This document shows, piece after piece, positions 1 through 62,538 of a DNA stretch of 64,000 nucleotides (within the stretch, counting starts at the first letter, position 1; each line of letters opens with the position of its first letter). The position numbers and the translations under genes are program-made. The notes below the pieces were generated by a model that saw nothing but the letters and a program-made list of their open reading frames with translations, had not been told where the DNA came from and did not search any database. The stretch is from a virus: IMG/VR virus record IMGVR_UViG_2802429139_000001; one strand, given 5' to 3'.

Positions 1-39
1 TATCTCACGTTGACCAGGCGGTCGCCAAAGTAGACGATC

Positions 40-77
40 AGAACTGAGACCTGTTGCTATACAGCAGGTCTCAGTTC
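40..77. terminator. Perfect inverted repeat AGAACTGAGACCTG...CAGGTCTCAGTTC, hairpin downstream of minus gene 178..375
   Basis: 14-bp stem arms read directly from sequence. Confidence 0.5.
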
Positions 78-177
78 CATTCTTGTCAGCGCGCCCAAAC
101 GCCCAACGCGATGACGACTAGAACGCCGAGAACGGCTGCGCGCCAGAGAGTCGTACACATCGCCGCGTAGGGGTCAG

Positions 178-375
178 TCACGCCCCCGCCACCTCCGCGA
201 GTGTTCCCGTGATGGCGGTCGCCAGCTCGGCGGCGTCGCCGTAGTCCAGCTCGACCGACTGAAAATCGCCGTCCCGGTCCAGGACCTTGACGGTGATCTT
301 CTGCGCCTTGGCCCAATGCTGCACATCCAGCGTGTCGCCATCCGGGTCAGTTGCAGTGAAGACCTGTTCCGACAT
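178..375 (-). CDS. Hypothetical small acidic protein (65 aa)
   Basis: ATG preceded by perfect RBS GAAGGAGG; overlapping ORF 86..316 is Arg/Gly-rich wrong frame. Confidence 0.6.
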   Translation of the reverse strand: MSEQVFTATDPDGDTLDVQHWAKAQKITVKVLDRDGDFQSVELDYGDAAELATAITGTLAEVAGA

Positions 376-581
376 AGTGAGCCTCCTTCATAGCGTGACG
401 GTAGACCACTCTACTACCAAAACTGTACAAGGTCTATGCCCACCGTTTGACGTAGCGTTGCCTTGTACAACAACTTCGGTGTGTTCATATTGGTAGACTT
501 GTCTACCATCACTGCTACACTGATCATCGACACCGCAAGGTGTCAATCACAACGACGACAAGCGGAAACAAGGAGGTGAAC
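376..581. promoter_or_regulatory. Divergent intergenic region with operator-like palindromes (TGGTAGACTTGTCTACCA at 491..508; GGTAGACCACTCTACTACCAA at 400..420; CTGTACAAGG/CCTTGTACAA inverted pair)
   Basis: Palindromes read from sequence between divergently oriented ORFs. Confidence 0.5.
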
Positions 582-767
582 ATGGTTCAACCGCCTGACG
601 GGATGAGCCGAGATGAGGCGTTAGCAGCGCTGCGCCAACGGCGCAGAGTTGTCACCCAGAAGATTGCAAATCGCAAACGCGAGCTTCGTGCTCTCGTGGC
701 TGAAGTGCAATCCCTGGAGACAGAGCTAGCCCACATCGAACAAGGCGAAGATCTGCTGTCTAGCTAG
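582..767 (+). CDS. Hypothetical coiled-coil protein (62 aa)
   Basis: RBS AAGGAGG 6 nt upstream of ATG at 582; heptad-like Arg/Glu/Leu-rich sequence; leader motif CAATCACAACGACGACA upstream. Confidence 0.55.
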   Translation: MVQPPDGMSRDEALAALRQRRRVVTQKIANRKRELRALVAEVQSLETELAHIEQGEDLLSS

Positions 768-775
768 TCAGCAGG

Positions 776-812
776 TCACCAGGGGGTCGGGAGCGACCCT
801 CTCGGCCCCCTG
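776..812 (+). terminator. GC-rich hairpin CCAGGGGG...CCCCCTGG followed by T-rich tract
   Basis: Inverted repeat read from sequence after stop of 582..767. Confidence 0.4.
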
Positions 813-1030
813 GTCTCGTCTCGCTTGTCCTAGAGGTGATTTCGTTGGTCGCGATCACGGCAAGGACGCGAGCTAGCGCGCTAGGTGATCATTGGGCGCG
901 CTCCGTTTCGACTGGCTCACGTCACCAACACAACGCACCCCCGCCCGTTCTTTCTATACCGGGTGGCGGGCGGGGGTGTTCAAACATCATCAACAACAAC
1001 CTCTTTCGCAAGGTGCGGAAGGTGCATGCA

Positions 1031-2470
1031 ATGAAAGCGAGAAAACCAATGAACGATACCGACATCATCACCGGTGATGAGGTTACTTTTCACAACAACC
1101 CGCAGATCGTTCTGCCGGAAGGCATTACATACGGCCGCGCCAAGGAGATCCTGGAGCGCATGCAGGATGAGGCCGAGTCGGTGCAGCAGACCAGTCGCAC
1201 CTACCAGTTTCGCCCGTTTGACGGCGCGGTCGCCACCTCTCGGGTGATGAAGCGCATGTTCGGTATCACCATCGGCGCTCCGAGCGGTGGCGGCTTCTTC
1301 TCCCCGCCCGAGCCTCCGGAAACCCGCACGGTGCAGATTTCGGCGACGGAGACTCTGGAGGTTCCGTGGGGCAACGTCTACCTTCCCAGCGTGGACAACA
1401 AGACCGTCGTCCAGGTCGGCGGAAGGCGCGACCGCGACAACGGAATTGTCACGCACGTCAACGTCATCAGTGCGAAGAAGAACGCCAAGATCGCGCGCGA
1501 GTTCCTGGATGCGATCGGTGAGGAGCTGAAAACCAACTCGATCTATCGTGGCAAGGCGATCGTAGGCACCGAGGAGCCGGAGTTCCTGAACCTCGCGACC
1601 ATCGTACCGAGTGAGATCGTCTTCTCCGATGAAGTGATGAGCACACTGGAAGGCACTCTGTGGTTAGTGATTCGGCACCGTAAGGCGCTCAAGGGCGAGG
1701 GTGTGCGCATCAAGCGTGCGCTGCTGTTGGAGGGTCCGTACGGCACCGGGAAGACCTCGGCCGGTCAGCTCACCGCGCTGGAGGCCGTCCAGAACGGTTG
1801 GACGTTCATCGCTGCACGACCGGGCGATGACATCAACGATGTGCTCCGCACGGCCAAGCTGTACCAGCCCGCGGTGGTCTTCATCGAGGATGTGGACAAC
1901 CAGACATCGACCAGCGACGTGGATCAGGTGTCCAAGCTGCTGGAGACCTTCGATGGTGTGACATCCAAGGGGTCCGAGGTCGCACTTCTGATGACTACCA
2001 ACCACTTTGAGCGCATCCATAAGGGTATGCTCCGCCCAGGTCGCATCGATGCGGTGGTGGAGGTCGCGGCACTGGATCGCAACGGTGTTGAGCGTCTAAT
2101 CAAGGCCGTCGTCGCGTCCGAGCGTCTTGCCGAGGACGTGGACTATGACAAGGTCTATGAGGCGATGACCATCCAGCTTGGTGACGGTGTGGTGGTCGGC
2201 TTCTATCCAGCGTTCGTGCGCGAGGCGCTGGAGCGCGCCAAGACGTTCGCCATCGGTCGGCTCAATGGTGGAACCAACTACAAGCTGGACACCACCGATC
2301 TGGTCGGCGCGGCGGTCTCGCTGCACAACCAGCTCAAGGCCCAGTTTGAGGCCGAAGAGGGTATCGCCAGGCCGACGATCGACGATCAGATCCAGGGTCT
2401 CATGAGCGACTTCGAGATCCGGGATTACGACAACGATTACGTCGGTACCTTGAAGCTCAAGAAGAGCTGA
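1031..2470 (+). CDS. Classical-clade AAA+ ATPase with ~230-aa N-terminal domain of unknown function
   Basis: Walker A GPYGTGKT, Walker B VVFIEDVD, second region of homology MTTNHFERIHKGMLRPGRID; start trimmed to ATG 1031 with GGAAGG RBS. Confidence 0.85.
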   Translation: MKARKPMNDTDIITGDEVTFHNNPQIVLPEGITYGRAKEILERMQDEAESVQQTSRTYQFRPFDGAVATSRVMKRMFGITIGAPSGGGFFSPPEPPETRTVQISATETLEVPWGNVYLPSVDNKTVVQVGGRRDRDNGIVTHVNVISAKKNAKIAREFLDAIGEELKTNSIYRGKAIVGTEEPEFLNLATIVPSEIVFSDEVMSTLEGTLWLVIRHRKALKGEGVRIKRALLLEGPYGTGKTSAGQLTALEAVQNGWTFIAARPGDDINDVLRTAKLYQPAVVFIEDVDNQTSTSDVDQVSKLLETFDGVTSKGSEVALLMTTNHFERIHKGMLRPGRIDAVVEVAALDRNGVERLIKAVVASERLAEDVDYDKVYEAMTIQLGDGVVVGFYPAFVREALERAKTFAIGRLNGGTNYKLDTTDLVGAAVSLHNQLKAQFEAEEGIARPTIDDQIQGLMSDFEIRDYDNDYVGTLKLKKS

Positions 2471-2491
2471 TCCGCACCGCAGATACAAAGA

Positions 2492-2527
2492 AGCACCCCC
2501 GAGAGCGAATCTCGGGGGTGCTTCCGT
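2492..2527. terminator. Hairpin GAAGCACCCCCGAG...CTCGGGGGTGCTTC after AAA ATPase gene
   Basis: 14-bp perfect inverted repeat directly after stop codon. Confidence 0.6.
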
Positions 2528-2840
2528 ATCAACACATTTCGCCACTGTGGCGCATCTAGCGCCTGATCATTCTCCCGAATGACACACCGAGCAGAACACC
2601 GAACCCGACCAGTACGCCCAGGGTTGTCAGCAGGGTTCGCGTGGTCATCTCTTCGGCCTCGATCTCCTCCAGGTCGTCACACTCGGGACACCGGCACTTC
2701 TCCCGGTAGTGCGTGCAGTCGCAGGGGCCATCCAGCTCATGGCCAGCGCACGCGCCGGCGCGGTGGTGCGGGTCGCCAAGGTCGTGGTTTTCCAGGTCGT
2801 GGCCCGCACGCGCAGATGTCGGTGAGACCCAGATACTCGG

Positions 2841-3209
2841 TCATCGCTTGCCTCTCCAGCGGCGCACCGTCATGCGGTCGACGCGTGCTGCGCGCTGTGC
2901 GCCATGCTCGCTCAATCCGTCTTCCATCGACAGCAGCGCCACGACGCGCGCGACGGCCATGCCCATGTCGGCGCGGCTCCGCGCGCGCTCCAGCGCTTGC
3001 CCCGCGTCTTCTAGTGTCAGCTCTTCCGCGAGGTACCGCGCCGCGGCCATCATCGCGGCGTCGCGCATCGGATACTCGGCAGGGTCGGCGTAGCGTTCGA
3101 CCAGATCGTTGAACGTGTCCGCGAAACGCACCGACGCTGCGCGAGACAGCTTGAAACCGTTCTCGCGTAGCCATCCGGTCGCGTTGGTGGGAGCTGTTGC
3201 CATGGTCAT
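2841..3209 (-). CDS. Hypothetical protein (122 aa)
   Basis: GGAGGA RBS before ATG at 3209; GC3-rich frame; ends at TGA 2841..2843, with an open coding-like continuation downstream. Confidence 0.6.
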   Translation of the reverse strand: MTMATAPTNATGWLRENGFKLSRAASVRFADTFNDLVERYADPAEYPMRDAAMMAAARYLAEELTLEDAGQALERARSRADMGMAVARVVALLSMEDGLSEHGAQRAARVDRMTVRRWRGKR

Positions 3210-3266
3210 GAAGTGTCCTCCAGTTGTCACCTTCTAGTCTAGTGACGCGGCCGGTAGTCCAAGCTA

Positions 3267-4064
3267 CTAGCGCGGCAAACCTAGAGGGTCTACCGAATCA
3301 ATCGGACGGTCCATCGCCGCGGTTAGGCCAGCGCGCGCGCCCTGTTTGAATCCGTCGTCACTGAACTGATCCACCATCGTGTTGACCGCATCCGGATACG
3401 CATCTCGCATCGCGTCGCGAGCGCGCTCACGGTCCGACTTGTACAGCGCGACCACGCCAGCCTTGTTGGCCGCATCACCTTCCTGCTGTTTGATGCGCTC
3501 AGCGATCGACGCTGCGAACCCAATGAGCCAGGATTGACGGTAGACGTGCAGCGATTGCGGCGCTCGCTTATCGCGCGTCATCTGCACCAGGTGGTCCAAC
3601 CGCTCTGCCCGATTCATGGCCGCCCACTCATCCACGGTGGCCGTACGGAACGTCTCTCGTTTCGGCATCTCCACTTTGGCGACCAAGCGTGTCGCCTGTG
3701 GTTGCAATATCTCCCAGAGCATCCTCAGGCGTTCGACATGGTGAGACATGCCGAACACGTGCACGAGCGGCATGTTATTGAGACCAACGGTCTTGCAGTG
3801 CAGCGCCTCCGCGAGGATGGACAGCATGTGTTTCTGCTCGGCCTGATAGGGACCGCGCACCAGTAGCAGCGTGTCGATGGCGTTCGGGATGTCGCTGATG
3901 TCGAGACCGCGCTGGTGTGCGCGCACAGTCGCCAGATCGATGCCGTGTTTGGCGAGCAGCGCGAAGGCGCGTTCCTGAAATGCCTCCTCCTCGGGCGTCC
4001 CAGTCACATCCTCGGCCTGTCGCAACAGCTTTGCGATCTTGTCAACGATCCTGTCGTCAGTCAT
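3267..4064 (-). CDS. DUF2786-like protein (265 aa)
   Basis: N-terminal KIAKLLRQAEDVTGTPEEEAFQERAFALLAKHGIDL resembles DUF2786 signature. Confidence 0.65.
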   Translation of the reverse strand: MTDDRIVDKIAKLLRQAEDVTGTPEEEAFQERAFALLAKHGIDLATVRAHQRGLDISDIPNAIDTLLLVRGPYQAEQKHMLSILAEALHCKTVGLNNMPLVHVFGMSHHVERLRMLWEILQPQATRLVAKVEMPKRETFRTATVDEWAAMNRAERLDHLVQMTRDKRAPQSLHVYRQSWLIGFAASIAERIKQQEGDAANKAGVVALYKSDRERARDAMRDAYPDAVNTMVDQFSDDGFKQGARAGLTAAMDRPIDSVDPLGLPR

Positions 4065-4184
4065 GGGTGTCCCCTGATGTCGCGTTGTCTTGGTAGTTCA
4101 TTCTACCAAAATACTAGTAGACCTCTCTACCATTGTGCTACGGTCGATTGGTCTACCAAACAACGGACGAAAGGGCTGCTGCTC
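4065..4184. promoter_or_regulatory. Divergent promoter/operator region with three palindromes (TTGGTAGTTCATTCTACCAA 4090..4108; GTAGACCTCTCTAC 4116..4134; TTGGTCTACCAA 4149..4160)
   Basis: Half-site TTGGTAGAC / GTCTACCAA recurs here and at 400..509. Confidence 0.55.
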
Positions 4185-4388
4185 ATGGCCAAGAGGGTTT
4201 GGATCGATAACGGCGGAATGGTCACCTGCGACGAGCACTCGGGTATGTACATGCGTTTCGCCATCAAGGAGCGGCCCAGCGCGAAGCGGCACACCACACC
4301 TCTTGGTGTGTACGTCGCAGATGAGTCCGGAAAGTACGAGTGCGAAACTTGCGTCCCCTTCCACACGAGGAACCCAAATGCCCAGTAA
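4185..4388 (+). CDS. Small Zn-ribbon-like protein (67 aa; CDEH...CETC)
   Basis: AAAGGG RBS; stop overlaps start of next gene by 11 nt (translational coupling). Confidence 0.55.
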   Translation: MAKRVWIDNGGMVTCDEHSGMYMRFAIKERPSAKRHTTPLGVYVADESGKYECETCVPFHTRNPNAQ

Positions 4389-5400
4389 ATGGTCCAACGT
4401 GCTCCGCGGTGTCGCCTTTGGCGACGCGTGGGGCTACCGCAATGAATTCAGGTCGTACGCTCAGCTCACCCAGCACGGTCTCATGGGTCCTGCGCTGCCT
4501 GAGAAGCTGATCATCAGTGACGACACTCAGATGACGCTCGCGCTCGCGCGCGCTCTGCGCGGTGCGAGCGACAAGACTGACAGTGAGATCCGTGCCGACG
4601 TGCTTACGGAGTGGGTCAACTGGTACGGCGACCCTGACAACAACCGCGCACCTGGCAATACCTGCATGCGCGCGATCGACGCCATCAAGCAAGGTGCGCA
4701 CTGGCTAGACGCTGTGGTAGCCGACTCTGATGGTTGCGGAACCGTGATGCGTGTCAGCCCAGCGGCGCTCGTGAACAGTGAATTCCATAGCTGGCAAGGC
4801 ATTTCGACCTGGCAGGCTCTCACAACGCATGGATCACCGACAGGCGCGGCGGCATCACTGGTGGGTGCTGCCCTGATTCGGCTAGCACCCATGCCTGGCG
4901 ACACCGTGAACTACGCGCTGGACCTCACGCTTGAGGCTGTCGGCGATCCTGATGATCTGCTGCTGCATGGACTCGACGAGTGGATCGTCGAGAATGGCGA
5001 CTACTACGGTCCGGCTTATCAAGAGGGTGCACGTCGATTCATCACGCGCGGAATGCTGAATCTCGCGCACACGTTGGTAGACGCGGACATTGCGCTGAGA
5101 AACATTCGCGCGAAGGATCTAGATCCCTGGGACCTAGATCCGTGCGAGCTGGCAGGTCCGGGATGGCGTGCGCACCATGCGCTTTCAACCGCGCTGCTGT
5201 GCGTCGACCTTTTCCCGGAAGATCCGATCTCCGCGCTACGTCGCGCGACGGTCACCAGTGGAGACAGTGACTCGATCGCTGCGGTCGCTGGGGCCGTCCT
5301 CGGTGCGATCCATCCTGACCCCTGGCCTGACGGTTGGTTCGATCGACTGGAAACGCGCTACCAGAAAGAGATTTCAGAGGCAGAAGGGTTTGGGTTCTGA
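4378..5400 (+). CDS. ADP-ribosylglycohydrolase (DraG/ARH family)
   Basis: GVAFGDAWG, SDDTQM, C-terminal TSGDSDSIAAVAGAVLGA signatures of the ARH family. Confidence 0.85.
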   Translation: MPSKWSNVLRGVAFGDAWGYRNEFRSYAQLTQHGLMGPALPEKLIISDDTQMTLALARALRGASDKTDSEIRADVLTEWVNWYGDPDNNRAPGNTCMRAIDAIKQGAHWLDAVVADSDGCGTVMRVSPAALVNSEFHSWQGISTWQALTTHGSPTGAAASLVGAALIRLAPMPGDTVNYALDLTLEAVGDPDDLLLHGLDEWIVENGDYYGPAYQEGARRFITRGMLNLAHTLVDADIALRNIRAKDLDPWDLDPCELAGPGWRAHHALSTALLCVDLFPEDPISALRRATVTSGDSDSIAAVAGAVLGAIHPDPWPDGWFDRLETRYQKEISEAEGFGF

Positions 5401-5678
5401 TGATCCATGCAGATCACGACAGCGAACCGTACAAACACGGCTACGACGACGGCAAGAAGATGGCGCCGTTCGTGAAAAAGTTCCCAGCATGCGTGTCCAT
5501 CCCTATGCGGTGGTCAGCAGATCCGGGACCGAAGCGGTCTGACGGATGGCCTGAGGCTGCTCACGCGTATGCCGAAGGCGTGCAAGATGGTTGGACCGAC
5601 AACTACACACCAGAACCGGGAGGGCGTCTGATCTCCGACATCACAACCGAATTGGACACCGAGGAGAAGGGCACATGA
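5400..5678 (+). CDS. Hypothetical protein (92 aa), third gene of ARH operon
   Basis: ATGA overlap with ARH stop; GC3-rich. Confidence 0.5.
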   Translation: MIHADHDSEPYKHGYDDGKKMAPFVKKFPACVSIPMRWSADPGPKRSDGWPEAAHAYAEGVQDGWTDNYTPEPGGRLISDITTELDTEEKGT

Positions 5679-5753
5679 GCATTGAGAATGAGCTACTGAG
5701 CAAGACGGCCAAACAGATTCACGACGGCCAGATCACAAGACCGTAGAACACAA

Positions 5754-5803
5754 AAGAAAACGCCCCCAACCGCAACTGAATGCGGTTGGGGGCGTTTCTC
5801 TTT
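5754..5803. terminator. Bidirectional intrinsic terminator (AAAA-CGCCCCCAACCGCA...TGCGGTTGGGGGCG-TTTCTCTTT)
   Basis: 14-bp stem flanked by A-run and T-run between convergent genes. Confidence 0.7.
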
Positions 5804-5869
5804 GGCCCTGGCGGGAGCGCTTGCACCTGGTTCACCGGACAGGCGCGAGTGCTACGACCGCCAGGGGCT

Positions 5870-29447: not shown

Positions 29448-32400
29448 TTAGACAGGTTGATCCACCACCTCCACGATCACGTCAACCTTGAACTGTGACG
29501 ACCCGGTTGACTTGCGCACTTCCAGCACCTTCATCTTCTGATTACGAGGAAGGATAACCTCGCGCTCGTGGGTTCCGACGGAGGTCAGTTGATCCATTCC
29601 ATCCGGTGTGCCTGACACGAAGATGCCGCGCTGACCGGGCTTCATCTTGTAGAGCACGCGAACCGGGTTGTGGAATGCCGGTGTGGTGGTGATTGACGTA
29701 GACAGGAAGGACTTGGACACGTACGTCTCACCCTCTAGCACCTTGAGCGCGTCGATGTCAGCGCCGAAACTGAACTTCATTCCCAGACTGTTCTCGTCGT
29801 TGAACTCGACAGCGTGCGTACCGCGGCTGAGCACGATGTGCTCCTCAAACGGATTGTGCTCGTAGAAAGCCGAATCGAGCGCCTTGGTTTTGGCTGACGG
29901 CACCTTGTCTTCGCGAGCGTGCGCGTTCATTGTGCTGTAGCCGCTGCCGGTGTACGACTTGATGGCGCTGTGCTGGTTGGATTTCCAAGCCGAGGCATTC
30001 TGTGGCGACATCAGCGAGCCGAACTGCTGCCACTCAACTGCCTTGCCGCTGGCATCGAAAACGTGCGGGTTGTCGGCAGACCCGACGGGAGCCTTGGAGT
30101 CGGCGATAACCGTCTTGCCGAGCTTGGTCAGCTCGCCAGCGGGCTGCTCATGTTCGGGTGTGTACTTCGTACCCTGTTTGATGACGACAGGTTTCGGCTG
30201 TTCTTTGATCTTGGAGTTACCCTGGGCTTTGAGCTTGTCTAGCGCCTTCTTGGCCATGTCGTCGCCGAGTGCGTCACCGTACTTGCCGAGCCATTTGGTC
30301 TGGACCCCAACGTCGTAGTAGCCCAACAGGTTCGCCAACTGATCGGTAGTGAGCGCCGCGATGCCGAACTCTTTGTCGAATTCGGGGATGGCCTCGGAGA
30401 GCTTGATACCCTTCTCGACCGCGTACGCCTTGACGGGCTGGAAGAACCCGCCAGAGCCGGCGTTCTTCAGGAACTCCTGTTCCCATTCGAGGATCTTGGC
30501 CGACTTCGTCGGATTGTTTGTAACGGGCTGCGCCACAGCTGGTGTCGCGTTACCGTTCTTCATCTGCCAGTACTGCGCGGGGGTCATCTTCGACAGTTGG
30601 GCGAAGTTGGCGGTGTCGCCCTTCTTCTTCGCCACGTACTTGGCCGACGCGAGCGCCTTGCCCGCCTTCTTCAGCACGTCCCCGTCTAGGATCGGAGTCG
30701 GCCCGGTCGGTATCGGAGACGGTGGCAGGAAATCGCCCTGGGTTATGTTCAGCCCCGGGGGCACGGTAATGACCTCACCCTTGACTTTGGTGTTCGTCAG
30801 ACGCTTCTCGACTGCCTTGATGTAATAGGAGCTCAGATCAGTTGCAAGACTGTTCTTTCGGGCAACAACTGCATCCAGGAACGCGTCAACATTGTTCGTC
30901 GCAATGTTGCCGTTCGCCTCGGCCAACAGCTTTCCCTGTTTGACTGCACCTTCGGCATAGGGCCGAAATAGATTGCGGATCTCCTTGTCTGGGATCGCTT
31001 GCAGACCTTGGATATAACTCGCTAGTTCGTCGCCCGAGGGATTGAGCAACTTACCGGGCTTGCCTTCGGCATACTGCCGAAACAGCGTGTTGTAGATGGG
31101 TTCTGGCGTGCCGTGCTTGACGTTGGGGTGGTAGTTCCAGTCCAGCGTGTCACCGCTGAAATACTTGAACGCTTGACCCTTGTCGATGCCGACGATCTCG
31201 CCGCCACCAGTGCGAATGAACTGTCCGGCGTGGCTGTCGTGGTTACCCATTAACCAGTCGAGCGCGTGATGCTTCTGGATGGTCAACAGATCGGCTTCAC
31301 TGATTGTGGACAGATCAACCCCAGATGGGAAGGCGCTCTTGCTGCCAGGAAACATGTACTGGACGGACTGGCGCTTACCGCCTACCGTCATGATGTACAT
31401 CGCTGGTGTCGTCAAGCCCGACTTCGCTTGCAGCTCAGCAGATGCCGCATCCAGCGTGACCAGGAATTGATCATTCGGATTCTTGGGACCCTTGACCAGC
31501 CACTTCTGAGACTGCGAGTCGGTGTACACCGTGGCGCCGTGCGTGCCGAGTACCTGACCGGTGCTGGCGAGCACGTTCGGTGAATCCGTCAGCTCGCCAA
31601 CGACGACCTTCGGCTTGGTCGCGGTGGATACCGTGCCGACTCCGGCGGTCGGCGCTGTCTCTGGCGTGGTGACCTTGGCGGTGGCCGTCGTCGTGGCCTT
31701 GGATGCGTTGCCGCCCTTGGATTGCGCGTACTCCGCGGGCGTCATCTTGGCCAGTGCGTTGTACTTGGCGGTGTCGCCCTTCTTTTTGGCCGCATGCTTG
31801 GCCGCCGCGAGTGCTTTAGCCGCCTTCTTGAGATCGACGTTCGCGGCCGCGTTGGCCATTGCGGTGACCTTCGCGGATGCCTTGGCTGCCGCGGCTGCCA
31901 TCTCAAGCAATGTCTGCTGTTCGTTGTAGACCTGCTCGGCCTTGAGCCACGCGACGGTATTGGCGGCGGCCTTCTTGTTGGCCACATACTTGGCCTGCGC
32001 TGCGGCCTTGGCCTTCTTCTTGGTGAAGTCCTTCTCAGCGACGAGCCACGCCGTCGCGTCGGTCTGGTACTGCTGCTCGGCCGCGAGCCATTCGGCAGTC
32101 GCCTTCTTCTTGGCGACGTACTTGGCCTGCGCTGCGGCCTTGGCCTTCTTCTTGGTGAAGTCCTTCTCAGCGACGAGCCACGTGGTCACGTCCGCCTGGT
32201 GCTGTTTCTCAGCGTCAAGCCACTTGGCGAGGTCCGCCGGTGCCGGTGACTTCTTGGTAGACATCGCTACCAGTGTTGGCCCGCTGCCTGACGCGGCCAG
32301 TTCGTTGGCCCGCATTTTCGACAGGACCGCGTTGAGCGTCGGCTTGATCTGCTCAGCTTCGAGCTGCTTGACCGTTTCGATGTACTCGGCGTCCCAGTCC

Positions 32401-32990
32401 TGGTAGTACCCCGGACGCTGGAACTTGAGCTTTCCGCGGGCGACGGCTGGCACGCAATGGCAGTTGTCATGACCCGCTTGCGCCGCGTGAGCGCTGCGGT
32501 AGACCGCTCCGCGGGTGGCCATCACTCGGCAGAACTCGCACGCTCCGGGCGACGCCAACCGCGAGTATTTGACTTTCTCGGTATCGGCGTTGCGCAGAAT
32601 CGTCGCGCGCGCGCCGTCGAACACCATGCGCTGTGCCGAACCCGTCAGCCTGGTCAGCGGATGGGCGGTGCCAGCGGCGCGGAACGCCCACTCAAGGGAG
32701 TTCATCATGCGGTCTTGCGACACCGCGTCGATCGCGGCTACCGCCTTGGGTGTGTACGGCTCATCGGGTGCCAGCTCGCCGTACCACTGATTGGCGACCT
32801 CGGATGCGGCCTCGACATAGGGCTGTACTACCTCGGGAAAGACTGCCTTGAATGCGTCCAGCAGGTCGGCAGCGGTAGCACCGTCGCTTTCGAGCTTCTT
32901 GTACAGGCCCACAAGGTCTTTGGTGGACAGCGTCGAAAGATCACCCAGGACGCTCTGGAGGGCTTGAGCCTGCTCAACCAGGCTGGCCAA
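29448..32990 (-). CDS. MuF-family minor capsid protein fused to internal repeats, a PI3/PI4-kinase-like domain and a C-terminal C3/VIP2-like ADP-ribosyltransferase domain
   Basis: N-term ACEFCRVMATRGAVY...HDNCHCVP (Phage_Mu_F); GNHDSHAGQF...VGIDKGQAF; YTGSGYSTMNAHAR, FLSTS, HEREVILP. Confidence 0.8.
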   Translation of the reverse strand: MASLVEQAQALQSVLGDLSTLSTKDLVGLYKKLESDGATAADLLDAFKAVFPEVVQPYVEAASEVANQWYGELAPDEPYTPKAVAAIDAVSQDRMMNSLEWAFRAAGTAHPLTRLTGSAQRMVFDGARATILRNADTEKVKYSRLASPGACEFCRVMATRGAVYRSAHAAQAGHDNCHCVPAVARGKLKFQRPGYYQDWDAEYIETVKQLEAEQIKPTLNAVLSKMRANELAASGSGPTLVAMSTKKSPAPADLAKWLDAEKQHQADVTTWLVAEKDFTKKKAKAAAQAKYVAKKKATAEWLAAEQQYQTDATAWLVAEKDFTKKKAKAAAQAKYVANKKAAANTVAWLKAEQVYNEQQTLLEMAAAAAKASAKVTAMANAAANVDLKKAAKALAAAKHAAKKKGDTAKYNALAKMTPAEYAQSKGGNASKATTTATAKVTTPETAPTAGVGTVSTATKPKVVVGELTDSPNVLASTGQVLGTHGATVYTDSQSQKWLVKGPKNPNDQFLVTLDAASAELQAKSGLTTPAMYIMTVGGKRQSVQYMFPGSKSAFPSGVDLSTISEADLLTIQKHHALDWLMGNHDSHAGQFIRTGGGEIVGIDKGQAFKYFSGDTLDWNYHPNVKHGTPEPIYNTLFRQYAEGKPGKLLNPSGDELASYIQGLQAIPDKEIRNLFRPYAEGAVKQGKLLAEANGNIATNNVDAFLDAVVARKNSLATDLSSYYIKAVEKRLTNTKVKGEVITVPPGLNITQGDFLPPSPIPTGPTPILDGDVLKKAGKALASAKYVAKKKGDTANFAQLSKMTPAQYWQMKNGNATPAVAQPVTNNPTKSAKILEWEQEFLKNAGSGGFFQPVKAYAVEKGIKLSEAIPEFDKEFGIAALTTDQLANLLGYYDVGVQTKWLGKYGDALGDDMAKKALDKLKAQGNSKIKEQPKPVVIKQGTKYTPEHEQPAGELTKLGKTVIADSKAPVGSADNPHVFDASGKAVEWQQFGSLMSPQNASAWKSNQHSAIKSYTGSGYSTMNAHAREDKVPSAKTKALDSAFYEHNPFEEHIVLSRGTHAVEFNDENSLGMKFSFGADIDALKVLEGETYVSKSFLSTSITTTPAFHNPVRVLYKMKPGQRGIFVSGTPDGMDQLTSVGTHEREVILPRNQKMKVLEVRKSTGSSQFKVDVIVEVVDQPV

Positions 32991-56549: not shown

Positions 56550-56865
56550 GGTCGACCACCTCCTCGTCCTCGTCGGTGATCAACGGCGCGGTGGGAATGT
56601 GCACGATGGTCACGACCATCGGCTTGGGTCCCTGCTGGAGCTCGTGGAAGTCCTGATCACTGATGACCGGGATCGAATGACCAGCCAACAGCGCAAGACC
56701 CAACTTCTGAGGTTCCATGAACATGGTGAAATTGCCACGCTCAGCGACGCCGGAAAGGTTCCAGCCGTTGGCGTCTCGCAGTAGCACTGAGACATGGTTG
56801 TCGTTGCGTGGGCACACCCAGTACGCGATGGTGCCGCTGGGGTATGTCGGGTAGTTGGTGTCCAT
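56542..56865 (-). CDS. Hypothetical protein, paralog B (CPRNDNH motif)
   Basis: Shared motif. Confidence 0.5.
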   Translation of the reverse strand: MDTNYPTYPSGTIAYWVCPRNDNHVSVLLRDANGWNLSGVAERGNFTMFMEPQKLGLALLAGHSIPVISDQDFHELQQGPKPMVVTIVHIPTAPLITDEDEEVVDHA

Positions 56866-56972
56866 CAGAACGCCCCCACTCGGATCAGGTACGCCGCCGC
56901 GACGATCGGCCCGGTCATGGCCAACATCAGCCAGGACGCGTAGTCGCCGAAAGTCATTTCCTTGGATGACAT
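56865..56972 (-). CDS. Small hydrophobic peptide (35 aa)
   Basis: GGAAGG RBS and leader motif; below track cutoff. Confidence 0.3.
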   Translation of the reverse strand: MSSKEMTFGDYASWLMLAMTGPIVAAAYLIRVGAF

Positions 56973-57014
56973 CTCATTCCTTCCATTCGTTGGTGTCGTT
57001 GTTGTGATGCCCTT

Positions 57015-57782
57015 CTAGGAGGCCGACAGCTCCGCTAGCCGTCGTTTGCATGCCTCTTTGAAGCTGGGGGTGAGCGCAATGTTCTTGTGCGCTCGCGCGT
57101 ACACGTCGCGCAGCTCTTCGATGTCCTTCGCGCGTGCCGCGAGTACGTCGAACCGCTTGCGTGTCCTGTTGGAAAAGTTGTCGAACTGGCCGCGACGGCG
57201 GTAAGCCTGAGCGTTCTTGGGCCGGTCGTCGGGGCGCCGCACGGGTGCGATGTAGTCCTTGATGGTGCGCTTGCGAAGCTCAGAGAGCCTGTGTGCCAGC
57301 GACACATCGCCCCATCCGCGTAGCAGGTTGACCCAGTGCACGGTGGCTTTCTTTGCACCCTCAGGGATGTGCACGATCAGCCCGCGGTCGATGTCCATCG
57401 GTAGACCCTTGATGCGCTTCTTAGCCTCGGGGTCGTAGCTCTTGCTTCGCGCGGCCAACGCCATGAGTGCAATCGTCGAGCGATGGACCTCCGCGCCCGT
57501 CTCGATGCTCATTAGATAGAAGTTGTGGCGGTAGTACACGATTCGGTCGGGAATCGCGACCGCTTTGAGCTGGTCGTGGACGAAGGTCGGGACGATGCTG
57601 ACCATTTCCATTTCGGCGGTGGCGATCTGGTACGCCTTGAGGTCGACCCGGTCGATCGCCGCGAGGTCCTTGCCCTCGTCATTGGCCGCGAGTAGTCCAG
57701 TGAGATTGGTCTGGTGGCTCCAGGTCAGCCCCAGCGGCTCCAACAGCTCGGCCGCGGGTATGTACTGATCGACGGTGCTCAT
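57015..57782 (-). CDS. PD-(D/E)XK nuclease paralog, possibly degenerate (IPD ... IETG, no Lys)
   Basis: Aligns with 53150..54079 over C-terminal 150 aa. Confidence 0.5.
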   Translation of the reverse strand: MSTVDQYIPAAELLEPLGLTWSHQTNLTGLLAANDEGKDLAAIDRVDLKAYQIATAEMEMVSIVPTFVHDQLKAVAIPDRIVYYRHNFYLMSIETGAEVHRSTIALMALAARSKSYDPEAKKRIKGLPMDIDRGLIVHIPEGAKKATVHWVNLLRGWGDVSLAHRLSELRKRTIKDYIAPVRRPDDRPKNAQAYRRRGQFDNFSNRTRKRFDVLAARAKDIEELRDVYARAHKNIALTPSFKEACKRRLAELSAS

Positions 57783-59134
57783 GCCGCCACCGCTGCATTC
57801 AGCTCGGCCAGCAGGTCGGCCAGCATCCAGCGCAGCGCGCCGGCAGCCTGTTGCGGTACAACTCCATTGCCACAGATGCGCAGTTGCGCGCGCCGTGAGA
57901 GTCCTTCGATGTTGACCCAATCCAGCGGCCAGCCCATCATCCACTCAGAGAACCGCGGATTGAGCTGGGGCGACCCGTTGCCGGGTACCACGGGATAGGG
58001 CGCGGGCCGGAAAAGTGTCTCCCAACGCTTGACGGCCGGGTCGTACTGATGCCATTCCGGCTCGTTGTAGGCAACCGCAAGGTCGACCATCTGGACAATC
58101 GACGCGCCAATGCCGAAACTGCGCCGACGATCTGGGTGGTAGCCCTTACGGTCGCCATCGGTGGCCATCGGTGTGGGCATGAGCGCGAACGCGTCATCGA
58201 CGGCCGTACGAAGATCAGGTCCACCTGTCCCGTGCTGGCATCTACCACCATTGCCGTCACTCGCGCGCGGCGTCGGGAACAGCTCTTTGACCAGACCAGT
58301 CAGCAGTGGTTTTCCCGCGCTGTTGTGCGTGTTGTTCTGGAGCGCAATAGGCGTGGGTAGCAGCGGATCAGGACGCCCCTTGAGATCTGGCCGATCAGGC
58401 ACAGGATCATGACCCGTCGCGTATTGCGCGACGTACGGCAGCATCAGATGCTTGGACCCGCGGGTGTAGTAGCCAGCGGTTGGAGTCGGCAGCAGATCAC
58501 CGGACTCGACGATCAGTCCAGGATGGACCCCTGATTCGGGTCGGATTGCTTCTTCGACTTCTGCCGCCGTGAGGTCGGAACGATAGGCAAGGATGAAGAC
58601 TCGCTCGCGCTGATGCGGGGCTCCCCACCATGACGCGGATACAGTCCGCCAGCTCGCGTTATACCCGAGTCCGGCCAGGTCTCCGAGAACGGCTCCGGCT
58701 GCGTTGAGTGCAGATTGTCCTGCGTCTTCTCCCAGGTCTGAGTCGTTGGGTTCCATGTTGCGATTGGCGGTTGCACTGAGCAGTCCCCTCACGTTCTCGA
58801 TGACGACGAACTTCGGGCGAAGCGCAGAGATGGCCTCGGCGAAGTAGGACCAAAGGCCTGAGCGTGTCCCATCGGTAAGCCCCTTGCGAACGCCCGCGCA
58901 ACTCACGTCCTGGCATGGGAAACCACCGCACAGGATGTCAACACCCTCGACCGTGGCCCAGTCCACGGTGGTCACATCGATCAGGTTGGGCAGACCCGGA
59001 AAGCGAGCCGCGAGCACCTTCTGGGCGTCTTTGTTGAATTCGCAGACCCAGACGGTCTCAGCGTCGAAGATGGACGTGACACCTAGATCCAGCCCCCCAG
59101 CACCCGAAAATAGTGAACCGAGTTTCAGCGCCAT
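57779..59134 (-). CDS. DNA (cytosine-5) methyltransferase
   Basis: LFSGAGG (motif I), GFPCQDVS (motif IV), ENV. Confidence 0.85.
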   Translation of the reverse strand: MALKLGSLFSGAGGLDLGVTSIFDAETVWVCEFNKDAQKVLAARFPGLPNLIDVTTVDWATVEGVDILCGGFPCQDVSCAGVRKGLTDGTRSGLWSYFAEAISALRPKFVVIENVRGLLSATANRNMEPNDSDLGEDAGQSALNAAGAVLGDLAGLGYNASWRTVSASWWGAPHQRERVFILAYRSDLTAAEVEEAIRPESGVHPGLIVESGDLLPTPTAGYYTRGSKHLMLPYVAQYATGHDPVPDRPDLKGRPDPLLPTPIALQNNTHNSAGKPLLTGLVKELFPTPRASDGNGGRCQHGTGGPDLRTAVDDAFALMPTPMATDGDRKGYHPDRRRSFGIGASIVQMVDLAVAYNEPEWHQYDPAVKRWETLFRPAPYPVVPGNGSPQLNPRFSEWMMGWPLDWVNIEGLSRRAQLRICGNGVVPQQAAGALRWMLADLLAELNAAVAA

Positions 59135-59370
59135 CAGTGCCCCCGACTCTCTGGGGGCTCCCATGAGGGAAGCTCGGCAGCAAATCTCCGCAACTCTTCG
59201 GGTGTGAACATCACACGTCCGTCTAACACTCGGGGATTGATACGGCCTGTCCTAATGAGTTCATTGAGCTTGTTCAGAGAGATCTCACCCAGCGCTGCGG
59301 CGGCGACCTTCTTGGGCACAAAGATCGGTTCCATTCCGACTGTGATTTCACCCGTGATCAGATCGGACAT
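59134..59370 (-). CDS. HTH DNA-binding protein (excisionase-like)
   Basis: Small HTH protein beside cro-like gene. Confidence 0.5.
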   Translation of the reverse strand: MSDLITGEITVGMEPIFVPKKVAAAALGEISLNKLNELIRTGRINPRVLDGRVMFTPEELRRFAAELPSWEPPESRGH

Positions 59371-59681
59371 CAGCTCGCCTGCTGGTTGGTACGTCGTTGT
59401 CTGGTAATTGATGATGCGGGCTGAAAGAGATTCGACATCTTCACGCCGAGAGCCACCGAAATCGCCTGCGCCACTTCGATAGAGAAGGTTCGACAACGAT
59501 CAGGATCACCACTGAGGAGGTGGCCGATGAAAGACGGGTGCTTGCCGATTCTTTGAGCCAGGTGACGAGCCGTCATCAGCTTCTCAGGCTCAGGACCAAC
59601 CAGACTGCGCAGCAGCGGTAGGTTCTTGACCTCGACTGATCTGACATCGTGCGCCACGTTTTCACAACCCTTCAGCGCCAC
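59370..59681 (-). CDS. Cro-like HTH regulator
   Basis: LMTARHLAQRIGKHPSFIGHLLSG; divergent from repressor. Confidence 0.6.
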   Translation of the reverse strand: MALKGCENVAHDVRSVEVKNLPLLRSLVGPEPEKLMTARHLAQRIGKHPSFIGHLLSGDPDRCRTFSIEVAQAISVALGVKMSNLFQPASSITRQRRTNQQAS

Positions 59682-59945
59682 CCCATAACGATGTGGTGGC
59701 TAGTAGGTGAACGGGATGCGTAGATCATCAACTACTAGCTACTGCTCTGTCAACCACTGATATGCCGCGTGTAGCGAATCTACTAGTCCGCCACGCGGGT
59801 GGACTAACGAAGCCCTGCGCACTGAGCAGTGATGTTGTAAGGTTCAGCAACCACGAGTTACTAGTTGCATTACTGGTAATTTCAAGATCAAATAGAGCTG
59901 ATAGGGCCGCTAACTACTAGTGACCACCGACGATCGGAAGACAAG
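59682..59945. promoter_or_regulatory. Repressor/cro intergenic control region with five CTACTAG-type operator repeats
   Basis: GGCTAGTAGG, AACTACTAGCTA, ATCTACTAGTCC, GTTACTAGTTGC, AACTACTAGTGA. Confidence 0.55.
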
Positions 59946-60440
59946 ATGCCTATAACCAACGCGAGTAGCGATGAGGATGGGTTGACTCTCCAAGACCTGA
60001 TACTCACGCTCAAGGGTGATCGGACATACAAGGATCTAGAGGACGCCAGTGGCGGGGTAGTGAAAGCGCAGCGCTGGAACCAGATCACCAATGGAATCAA
60101 AGTCAAGGAGTTCCCAGAACCGGCGTCGATAGAAGGCATGGCTCGCGCACTCAACGTGAAGCTCGATGTCATATTGCTGTCGATTGCCCGATCTGTCGGC
60201 CTACCTGTCGAGGTGGATGTCTCACGACTGGCGGCCCTGCTCCCCCCTGGCGCCGAAAAACTAGGTGACGCTCAGCTCGGCCTCATGCTGTCGCTCTTAC
60301 GAGAGATGATCAAAGCGAGCGAAAATGATAGCGACGGGGACACTGAGAGTGCCCCAAAAGTATTGGGCTCCAAGACTAAACCGGAGCCTGGAGCCCCAAA
60401 GAAGACGACTCGCCGGACTAGGACCAATACCTCCAAGTAG
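59946..60440 (+). CDS. Immunity repressor-like HTH protein (164 aa)
   Basis: XRE-type HTH LTLQDLILTLKGDRTYKDLEDASG; only plus-strand gene in region, divergent from cro. Confidence 0.65.
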   Translation: MPITNASSDEDGLTLQDLILTLKGDRTYKDLEDASGGVVKAQRWNQITNGIKVKEFPEPASIEGMARALNVKLDVILLSIARSVGLPVEVDVSRLAALLPPGAEKLGDAQLGLMLSLLREMIKASENDSDGDTESAPKVLGSKTKPEPGAPKKTTRRTRTNTSK

Positions 60441-60446
60441 TGGGAC

Positions 60447-60809
60447 TCAGCAGTTGAGTAGGTGACCGCCTCGTGGTCGCCGATTCGACCTTTTCCCCAT
60501 GTCGATCGGAGCGGCACAGGGACGCTCCTGCCATGACAAATCGATGGGCACCGACACATGCGTCAGTAGGCCATCGTCGGTTTCTGTCCACACATCCTGT
60601 TGTCGCAGCGCGTAGAACTGAACCGCGAGCTGCGCGGCGTTCACACGCCGGCACGGGATCACCACTACCGACCCCGTGACAAGCTGAACTAGCTGACCGA
60701 TGTACACCATCGCGTGCGGCCCGACGTGGTGATATATGACCTCACCGACAGAGGGGTATATGGCTACAAACAAGATCATCCCCTGTTCCATACGCCACAA
60801 GCGCCCCAC
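60447..60809 (-). CDS. Hypothetical protein between repressor and integrase
   Basis: ORF in classic lysogeny-expressed location. Confidence 0.4.
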   Translation of the reverse strand: MGRLWRMEQGMILFVAIYPSVGEVIYHHVGPHAMVYIGQLVQLVTGSVVVIPCRRVNAAQLAVQFYALRQQDVWTETDDGLLTHVSVPIDLSWQERPCAAPIDMGKRSNRRPRGGHLLNC

Positions 60810-60869
60810 AGCCGTGGCAACGATGCTTTACGGCGCGCAGCCTGCCAGTTGACAGCCCCCGCGTGGGAC

Positions 60870-62318
60870 TCAATGTAGCGCTGGATTCAACAGCTTGGTC
60901 AGTTTTGACAATGCTGACTTCATCTGCGTCTGATCCACGTGGACGTAACCGCGATGCGCGACAACAGAACTCTGACCCATTATCGCCATCCGCACATCTT
61001 CTGGGACCTTGAGTTCCATCAAAAGCGTTGCGGCAGTGTGCCTTGCTGCATAGAGCATTCTGTTGGGCAAATCTGGGATTTCCAAGTTTCCAGATTCGAT
61101 CTCGATTTCATTACAGCCGGTAACAGATCCATCTAACTCGAACCCAGCGGCCACCATGAGCGCGTGCCATCGTTCATTCATCTCCGTCGGGCCATACGGC
61201 CGACCGTCATCATGAGCCCAGACCAAGTCCAGGGGTCCGGGCGTCTGACGCTCTAATCGCAAGCGCAACATAGTTTCCAGAGGCTTGATGAGAGGAAGGG
61301 GACGTTTACCTGCGGCTGTCTTAGGGCGCGTCCACACCTGGGTGCCGTGGCAGGGGCGGTACTCGAAGCCCGGTTGAAAGTCATATTCGGCATCCGGGCA
61401 CCAGCCCGCGCGCTTGCGTTTGCATGGGTAGGCGCCATCTTCATTGGGCACTCCGCACCCGTGCCTCTTGCTCGGCAGCTCTTGTAGCTGCCAGGACAGA
61501 TCCAGGACCTTGTTCTCGAAGTCGACCCGACTCCACTCAAGACCGTTCAACTCGCTCGGGCGAGCCACCGTCAGGAACGCGAAGCTCCAACGATCTGCCA
61601 GGGGGTCGTTCAAGTCGATCGCTGTGCGCATGACGTGTATAGCCTCAGGCGCGGTGAACGGCTGAATTTCGGCTGTCACATGGCTGGGCTTCTTGACCAT
61701 CGTTGCCACGTTGCGCTCCAGCACCCCTTCGTTGATCGCCCCTTTGAGCGCCTTCTGGAGAATCTGATGCGCCTTGACCGCGTTCCGGGTCGAGCCTGTT
61801 TCGTTGATCGTCTTGATAAGCGCGCGGACATCCTCTGGTGTCAGCTTGGCGAGCTGCTTCTTGCCGATGTGCGGCTTGATCAGCAGACGAATTCCCGATT
61901 CGTAGTAGAGATAGGTCTTCGGCTTCACGGCAGGCTTGTGGATGGTTTCCAGCCAGTAATCGAGCCACTGACCGACCGTGATCTTGGGTGACTGGATGAT
62001 GTTCCCCTTGGCGATGTCCTCCAGCAGCTTCTTACGCCGGTCGAGCGCCGTACCGCGGTCTTTCGCCGAGACCGTCTTTCGCCTCTGCTTGCCATCTGCA
62101 CCAGGCACGGTCACCGCACATACCCACATGCCGTCACTGCGTTTGTAAGGCTTGCCCTCCCCGCGCCCCGCGCGCTGGCGCGGCGTCAGGTGCCATGCTC
62201 CGCAGTCGCACTCGTACGGCTTGACGGCCTTCGGTGGGTTCCGATAGCGACGCGTCAGCTCATCAGTCGCGGTGATCTTGTCGGTGTAACCCTTGAGCTG
62301 AGGGGTTGGGCATCGCAT
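60870..62318 (-). CDS. int: Tyrosine integrase
   Basis: Arm-binding N-domain DGMWVCAVTVPGADGKQRRK; catalytic ARHTAATLL ... HRGY. Confidence 0.9.
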   Translation of the reverse strand: MRCPTPQLKGYTDKITATDELTRRYRNPPKAVKPYECDCGAWHLTPRQRAGRGEGKPYKRSDGMWVCAVTVPGADGKQRRKTVSAKDRGTALDRRKKLLEDIAKGNIIQSPKITVGQWLDYWLETIHKPAVKPKTYLYYESGIRLLIKPHIGKKQLAKLTPEDVRALIKTINETGSTRNAVKAHQILQKALKGAINEGVLERNVATMVKKPSHVTAEIQPFTAPEAIHVMRTAIDLNDPLADRWSFAFLTVARPSELNGLEWSRVDFENKVLDLSWQLQELPSKRHGCGVPNEDGAYPCKRKRAGWCPDAEYDFQPGFEYRPCHGTQVWTRPKTAAGKRPLPLIKPLETMLRLRLERQTPGPLDLVWAHDDGRPYGPTEMNERWHALMVAAGFELDGSVTGCNEIEIESGNLEIPDLPNRMLYAARHTAATLLMELKVPEDVRMAIMGQSSVVAHRGYVHVDQTQMKSALSKLTKLLNPALH

Positions 62319-62488
62319 GGCTCGGTTCTCCGTCGTTTGTCATCTGAGTCGGCAAACGCCTCACGAGACCCTGCCGCTGTAGCTTAGCTGTAGCTAAAAG
62401 AATGAATACTATGTTGCACTATGTTACTCAGTATATAGGGCTCACCTGCGCATATATGGGGTATCCGCAGCTCAATTCTATCGCACTC
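62319..62488. promoter_or_regulatory. attP arm with direct repeats (CTGTAGCTTAGCTGTAGCTA; ACTATGTTGCACTATGTTAC), candidate arm-type Int sites
   Basis: AT-rich repeats between int and tRNA core. Confidence 0.5.
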
Positions 62489-62538
62489 GCTGACTCTTAA
62501 TCAGCGGGTCTGGGGTTCGAAACCCTGACGGCGCACCA
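62489..62538 (+). tRNA. Partial tRNA-Lys(CTT): anticodon stem-loop to CCA only (attR core), not a complete gene
   Basis: GCTGA-CTCTTAA-TCAGC anticodon arm, T-arm TGGGGTTCGAAACCCTG, acceptor ACGGCGCACCA; no matching 5' acceptor or D-arm. Confidence 0.6.

Follow-up and report, generated by a model that had tools for sequence, protein, structure and literature searches.

Which protein acts on the palindromes that recur within positions 1..5810 of this DNA, and what purpose is served by the AAA+ ATPase and the ADP-ribosylglycohydrolase (ARH) encoded beside them? The window, i.e. the whole stretch of 64,000 nucleotides analyzed, is the reverse complement of prophiFSIL01-1, a Mycobacterium phage of cluster MabR (100% identity), and 1..5810 corresponds to 62535..56726 of BK061311.1, again with 100% identity. 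The flagged region is the previously described right arm of a Mycobacterium abscessus MabR prophage. Publications on MabR prophages (McProf, Cushman et al. 2021, PMC8191103; Cote et al. 2022, PMC9434293) describe the same element and genes, and name an AAA-ATPase, a helix-turn-helix (HTH) protein, an ADP-ribosyl glycohydrolase and a sliding clamp between the lysis cassette and attR. Operators, palindromes and promoters of the region go unmentioned in both papers, as does any link between the glycohydrolase and a capsid ADP-ribosyltransferase (ART); text searches for these topics were likewise empty. The regulon and the regulator-operator pairing appear to be undescribed; the region itself is already known. 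The reading preferred here, with a probability of about 0.6, is a joint one, in which the right arm would form a regulon under the HTH protein gp87 and the ARH would reverse modification by the virion MuF-ART of the same phage.

Layout of the MabR right arm

The six gene intervals given in the earlier note all agree with open reading frames and GenBank annotation, and its domain calls (AAA, DUF2786, ADP-ribosylglycohydrolase) were confirmed by domain search. Its clean hairpin terminators were recovered by a terminator scan, and the accessory position between lysis genes and att is supported. Contrary to the layout given there, the prophage extends past window position 1: according to the annotation, gp95 and a WXG100/Tde toxin-immunity cassette occupy about 4 kb between this position and attR. 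The features are:

41..77, unstranded: hairpin terminator with a 16-bp stem (terminator scan), separating off-window gp95 (plus) from the leftward gp94/gp93 pair
178..375, minus: gp93, 65 aa, leftward unit from site Oa (ORF and annotation)
582..767, plus: gp91, basic coiled-coil protein of 61 aa that opens the AAA unit (ORF and annotation)
778..814, plus: hairpin after gp91 (sequence and folding)
836..1030, plus: conserved non-coding leader that precedes the AAA gene (five-phage alignment)
1031..2470, plus: AAA+ ATPase of the classical clade with an N-terminal domain of ~230 aa (PF00004 at residues 231-345)
2489..2525, unstranded: bidirectional hairpin terminator (terminator scan)
2556..2851, minus: orthologue of McProf gp90 with a frameshift, at the end of the HTH operon (tblastn, two frames)
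2841..3209, minus: gp87, 122 aa, proposed regulator (phrog_2311, E 3e-21; linkage to the motif)
3267..4064, minus: DUF2786 + DUF7168 protein, opens the leftward operon (domain search)
4185..4388, plus: gp85, 67 aa, Cys/His (zinc-ribbon-like), first gene of the ARH operon (ORF and annotation)
4378..5400, plus: ARH of DraG/Tri1 type (PF03747, ADP_ribosyl_GH, E 2e-46)
5400..5678, plus: gp83, 92 aa, last gene of the ARH operon (ORF and annotation)
5757..5798, unstranded: bidirectional hairpin terminator at the ARH operon/dnaN junction (terminator scan)

The small genes differ in their conservation. All five MabR phages keep gp93, which shows only a weak PHROG match, and a gp91 homologue also exists in FSQJ, where it was overlooked by the annotators. 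The DUF2786 + DUF7168 gene is missing from FVLQ and FSQJ, in which unrelated small proteins also take the place of gp85. Relative to McProf and FSAT, the gp90 orthologue carries a 1-nt insertion; McProf gp90 is Cys/His-rich with a C-terminal membrane anchor. Family searches with gp83 gave no match.

The AAA+ ATPase, the ARH and the virion ART

The AAA+ protein contains Walker A (235), Walker B (282), TTN (322) and RPGRID (335) motifs, and its best solved relatives are CDC48/VCP/PAN/FtsH. It matches phrog_10440 over its full length and belongs to a phage-wide, unfoldase-like family. Members of this family are frequent in lytic phages, with full-length examples in N4-like, Pseudomonas and Gordonia phages. 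The ATG at 1031 proposed in the earlier note is supported as the start of the AAA+ gene; the annotated start at 845 is probably wrong. The leader 836..1030 is near-invariant in all five phages, apart from 1-nt indels that break every reading frame, and forms a stable fold (z = -4.7); neither an Rfam match nor covariation was found for it.

The closest solved relatives of the ARH are DraG (2woe) and entry 6dre. DraG and Tri1 are also its best NCBIfam names, with scores far under the equivalog cut-offs, and the metal-binding motifs are retained (DD at 48-49, GDSDS at 295). A candidate source of its substrate is encoded by the same phage:

29448..32990, minus: gp53, MuF-type minor capsid protein with a C-terminal ADP-ribosyltransferase (PF25310 + PF03496)

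The ART domain of gp53 harbors R / STS / ExE motifs and is of the VIP2/exoenzyme type, not DraT; its activity is predicted from sequence. Because every MabR phage carries this virion fusion (five of five), an antidote or reset function is suggested for the ARH. As an ADP-ribosyl-arginine hydrolase of DraG/Tri1 type it would undo the modification delivered by the virion MuF-ART, which may reset the host on commitment to lysogeny or shield lysogens from injected or leaky toxin. The earlier note drew no connection between an ART and the island.

The distribution of both enzymes was compared across phage records. An ARH occurs in only 27 of 50,697, at least 13 of which also encode a VIP2-like ART, in four lineages. 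Against the proposed link, a VIP2-like ART was undetected in four ARH lineages, many ART-bearing phages lack an ARH, and the alleles do not co-vary: between McProf and FSIL the ART domain is 98.9% identical, the ARH only 64%.

Several known systems combine comparable parts. As in Tre1/Tri1 and DraT/DraG, a DraG/Tri1-like ARH-fold enzyme shares a genome with an R-S-E type ART. Unlike in those pairs, the two genes lie ~24 kb apart and belong to different programmes, one for a virion protein and the other a lysogen-expressed operon. Like the MuF polymorphic toxins, gp53 joins a MuF-type head protein to a C-terminal toxin domain. In the MuF toxins of temperate phages the immunity gene normally lies immediately downstream of the toxin gene, whereas the candidate antidote here is an enzyme in a distant, separately regulated operon. 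A further comparison is with ARG(ARH)-centred operons, for which a role against viral ADP-ribosylation has been predicted (Iyer et al. 2022, PMC9503650): they place an ARH under a negative HTH regulator, as is proposed for the island, sometimes with chaperone-like partners. Those operons belong to hosts and rely on Nudix- or WYL-HTH sensors, and the absence of a linked ART is part of their definition; the present one is located in a prophage with an ART, and its candidate regulator comes from a different family.

The earlier note had labeled the island a lysogen-expressed defense or counter-defense locus. Its expression in lysogens agrees with reports on the orthologous AAA and ARH units of McProf: gp85/86 and gp91/92 of that phage (its gp92 being the orthologue of gp91 here) were listed as lysogen-expressed, and so was McProf gp56 (PMC8191103, PMC9434293). 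The label itself fared less well. On this reading the AAA+ protein would be a defense ATPase, and the ARH would strip ADP-ribose from ARTs of unrelated superinfecting phages or host DarT-like systems. The location between lysis genes and att, adjoining a toxin-immunity cassette, is consistent with such a role, as are the lysogen expression of orthologues, the prediction for ARH-centred operons with a negative regulator (PMC9503650) and the fast divergence of ARH alleles among otherwise similar prophages. However, PADLOC families gave no match beyond a P-loop stretch of ~50 residues, the AAA family is present full-length in many lytic phages, and Gordonia and Rhodococcus phages that are large and probably lytic also encode ARHs, often beside an ART of their own. 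Anti-phage defense is a less likely explanation, and the phage's own virion ART is preferred over it to account for the ARH.

Palindromic sites and their candidate regulator

The palindromes described in the earlier note are real and represent one motif, TGGTAGA-N4-TCTACCA, with five copies across both divergent intergenic regions. GGTAGA-N4-TCTACC with at most one mismatch occurs six times in 64 kb (0.16 expected), five of them within these two regions, and the perfect 14-mer three times (0.03 expected). Among the five MabR prophages compared, the arms are invariant and the N4 spacers vary freely at orthologous sites. The motif scan gave the following sites, all unstranded:

399..416: putative operator Oa, CGGTAGACCACTCTACTA, arms kept and spacer variable in relatives
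491..508: putative operator Ob, perfect palindrome TGGTAGACTTGTCTACCA
3253..3268: degenerate operator relic (3 mismatches) directly upstream of the HTH gene
4091..4108: putative operator O1
4115..4132: putative operator O2, central site, 24 bp from O1
4141..4158: putative operator O3
32255..32272: operator-like palindrome TGGTAGACATCGCTACCA within the MuF-ART gene

O3 is perfect in McProf, FSAT, FVLQ and FSQJ, and the relic aligns with sites beside the FVLQ and FSQJ HTH genes that are better preserved. The O1-O2 spacing equals the family-wide centre-to-centre distance of 23-24 bp. The MuF-ART gene of every MabR phage compared (five of five) has its palindrome at the orthologous codons, and in FSQJ this is a perfect 18-mer. 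The operator vocabulary is distinct from that of the immunity switch (59657-59946, CTACTAG repeats), as the earlier note had proposed, because the 14-18 bp palindrome is absent there. The heptamer CTACTAG, however, has two copies within island sites as well (3264 and 4114).

The dedicated regulator postulated for these sites is most likely gp87, based on genomic linkage. An AlphaFold2 model (pLDDT 94) consists of an N-terminal helical domain and a C-terminal HTH; PDB matches are local and confined to the HTH. The HTH nature of this product had been missed in the earlier note, which listed three other small proteins as candidates. One of these (4185..4388) is not conserved in two of five relatives, and no locus outside MabR phages combines the motif with either of the others (178..375 and 582..767). 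Scans for paired palindromes that used DNA only yielded 54 high-GC viral and 57 high-GC bacterial loci, and a gp87-family ORF lies beside the sites in 48 and 42 of these, respectively (90/111), at a median distance of 136 bp in the bacterial set. The same scans gave 43 + 36 = 79 low-GC loci, where a gp87-family ORF was found in 0/43 and 0/36. No other island protein has homologues in the non-MabR loci found by the DNA motif. The HTH gene of FVLQ and FSQJ lies immediately beside the ARH operon and is transcribed divergently from it. On the other side, a simple code of residue-to-base recognition failed when applied to the whole gp87 family.

The putative sites overlap the -10/+1 of four predicted promoters, and in some cases an arm itself forms the -10 element, oriented toward the adjacent gene. 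Read on the minus strand, Oa contains TAGAGT (413->408), the predicted -10 of the leftward gp93 promoter, and in Ob TGGTAGACT is the predicted extended -10 (TGnTAnnnT) of the rightward gp91/AAA unit. In the second region, the minus-strand reading TGGTAGAAT of O1 is the predicted extended -10 of the leftward DUF2786/HTH promoter (promoter scan match 4129->4100 with TG), O2 covers the predicted -35 regions of both divergent promoters, and TGCTACGGT (4136-4144), which overlaps O3, is the predicted extended -10 of the ARH operon. This arrangement resembles lambda OR1-OR3 with PR/PRM: three palindromic sites lie between back-to-back divergent promoters, overlap -10 and -35, and one promoter drives the regulator's own operon. 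Unlike the lambda operators, the island sites are not the immunity switch of this phage, and gp87 has no detectable sequence similarity to its immunity repressor.

In the preferred model, a gp87 dimer would bind the 18-bp motif at all five sites and control two divergent promoter pairs, gp93 with gp91-AAA and DUF2786-HTH with the ARH operon. Core promoter elements lie under the sites, those of gp87's own operon among them, so that bound gp87 would be expected to act as a repressor. The outcome would be negative autoregulation, with an output that is steady and moderate in lysogens. The cassette TGGTAGA(C/G)TGCTCTACC-ATG also precedes leaderless small genes (FSAT gp89, McProf gp56), and an ATG directly follows the site in 33/39 cases. 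The same cassette with its leaderless ATG may drive extra small genes in sister prophages, and is widespread in mobile elements of Actinomycetota.

It is unlikely that gp87 acts at the palindromes as an activator or dual regulator instead. Every motif-bearing McProf unit is reported to be expressed in lysogens, and the -35 regions are weak, as is typical of activator-dependent promoters. However, the sites lie over -10 and +1 and not at upstream activator positions, the second palindrome of the canonical cassette holds the -10 and abuts the leaderless ATG, and the McProf HTH gene gp89 is not among the 16 genes reported as lysogen-expressed (PMC8191103, PMC9434293). This last point also weighs against the preferred model.

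Quite improbable is a captured, autoregulated toxin-antitoxin or plasmid-control cassette, for which control of the ARH and AAA units would be incidental. Elsewhere, a small gene with weak GNAT similarity often precedes the gp87-family gene, and the pair forms a leaderless unit that regulates itself, but the GNAT similarity is under Pfam thresholds and MabR phages lack such a partner gene. In addition, the motif has multiplied to at least five promoters, in an arrangement kept in five of five prophages.

Least probable is that the palindromes are mere bidirectional promoter elements or host-factor sites bound by no island protein: TGGTAGACT, TGGTAGAAT and TAGAGT are good mycobacterial -10 elements, so that conservation may partly reflect promoter function, but both arms are conserved and not just the promoter-facing one, arms are still invariant in O2 and O3, which have no usable -10 in either direction, and a host factor does not explain why the motif and gp87-family genes accompany each other in many genera of actinobacteria.

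Cluster K mycobacteriophages encode gp87 homologues with 36-44% identity (TM4 gp38, Larva gp37; annotation 'HTH DNA binding protein'), likewise just after the lysis cassette. In place of GTAGA-N4-TCTAC sites, none of which was found at TM4/Larva, GTTGAC...GTCAAC-type palindromes are located upstream of these genes.

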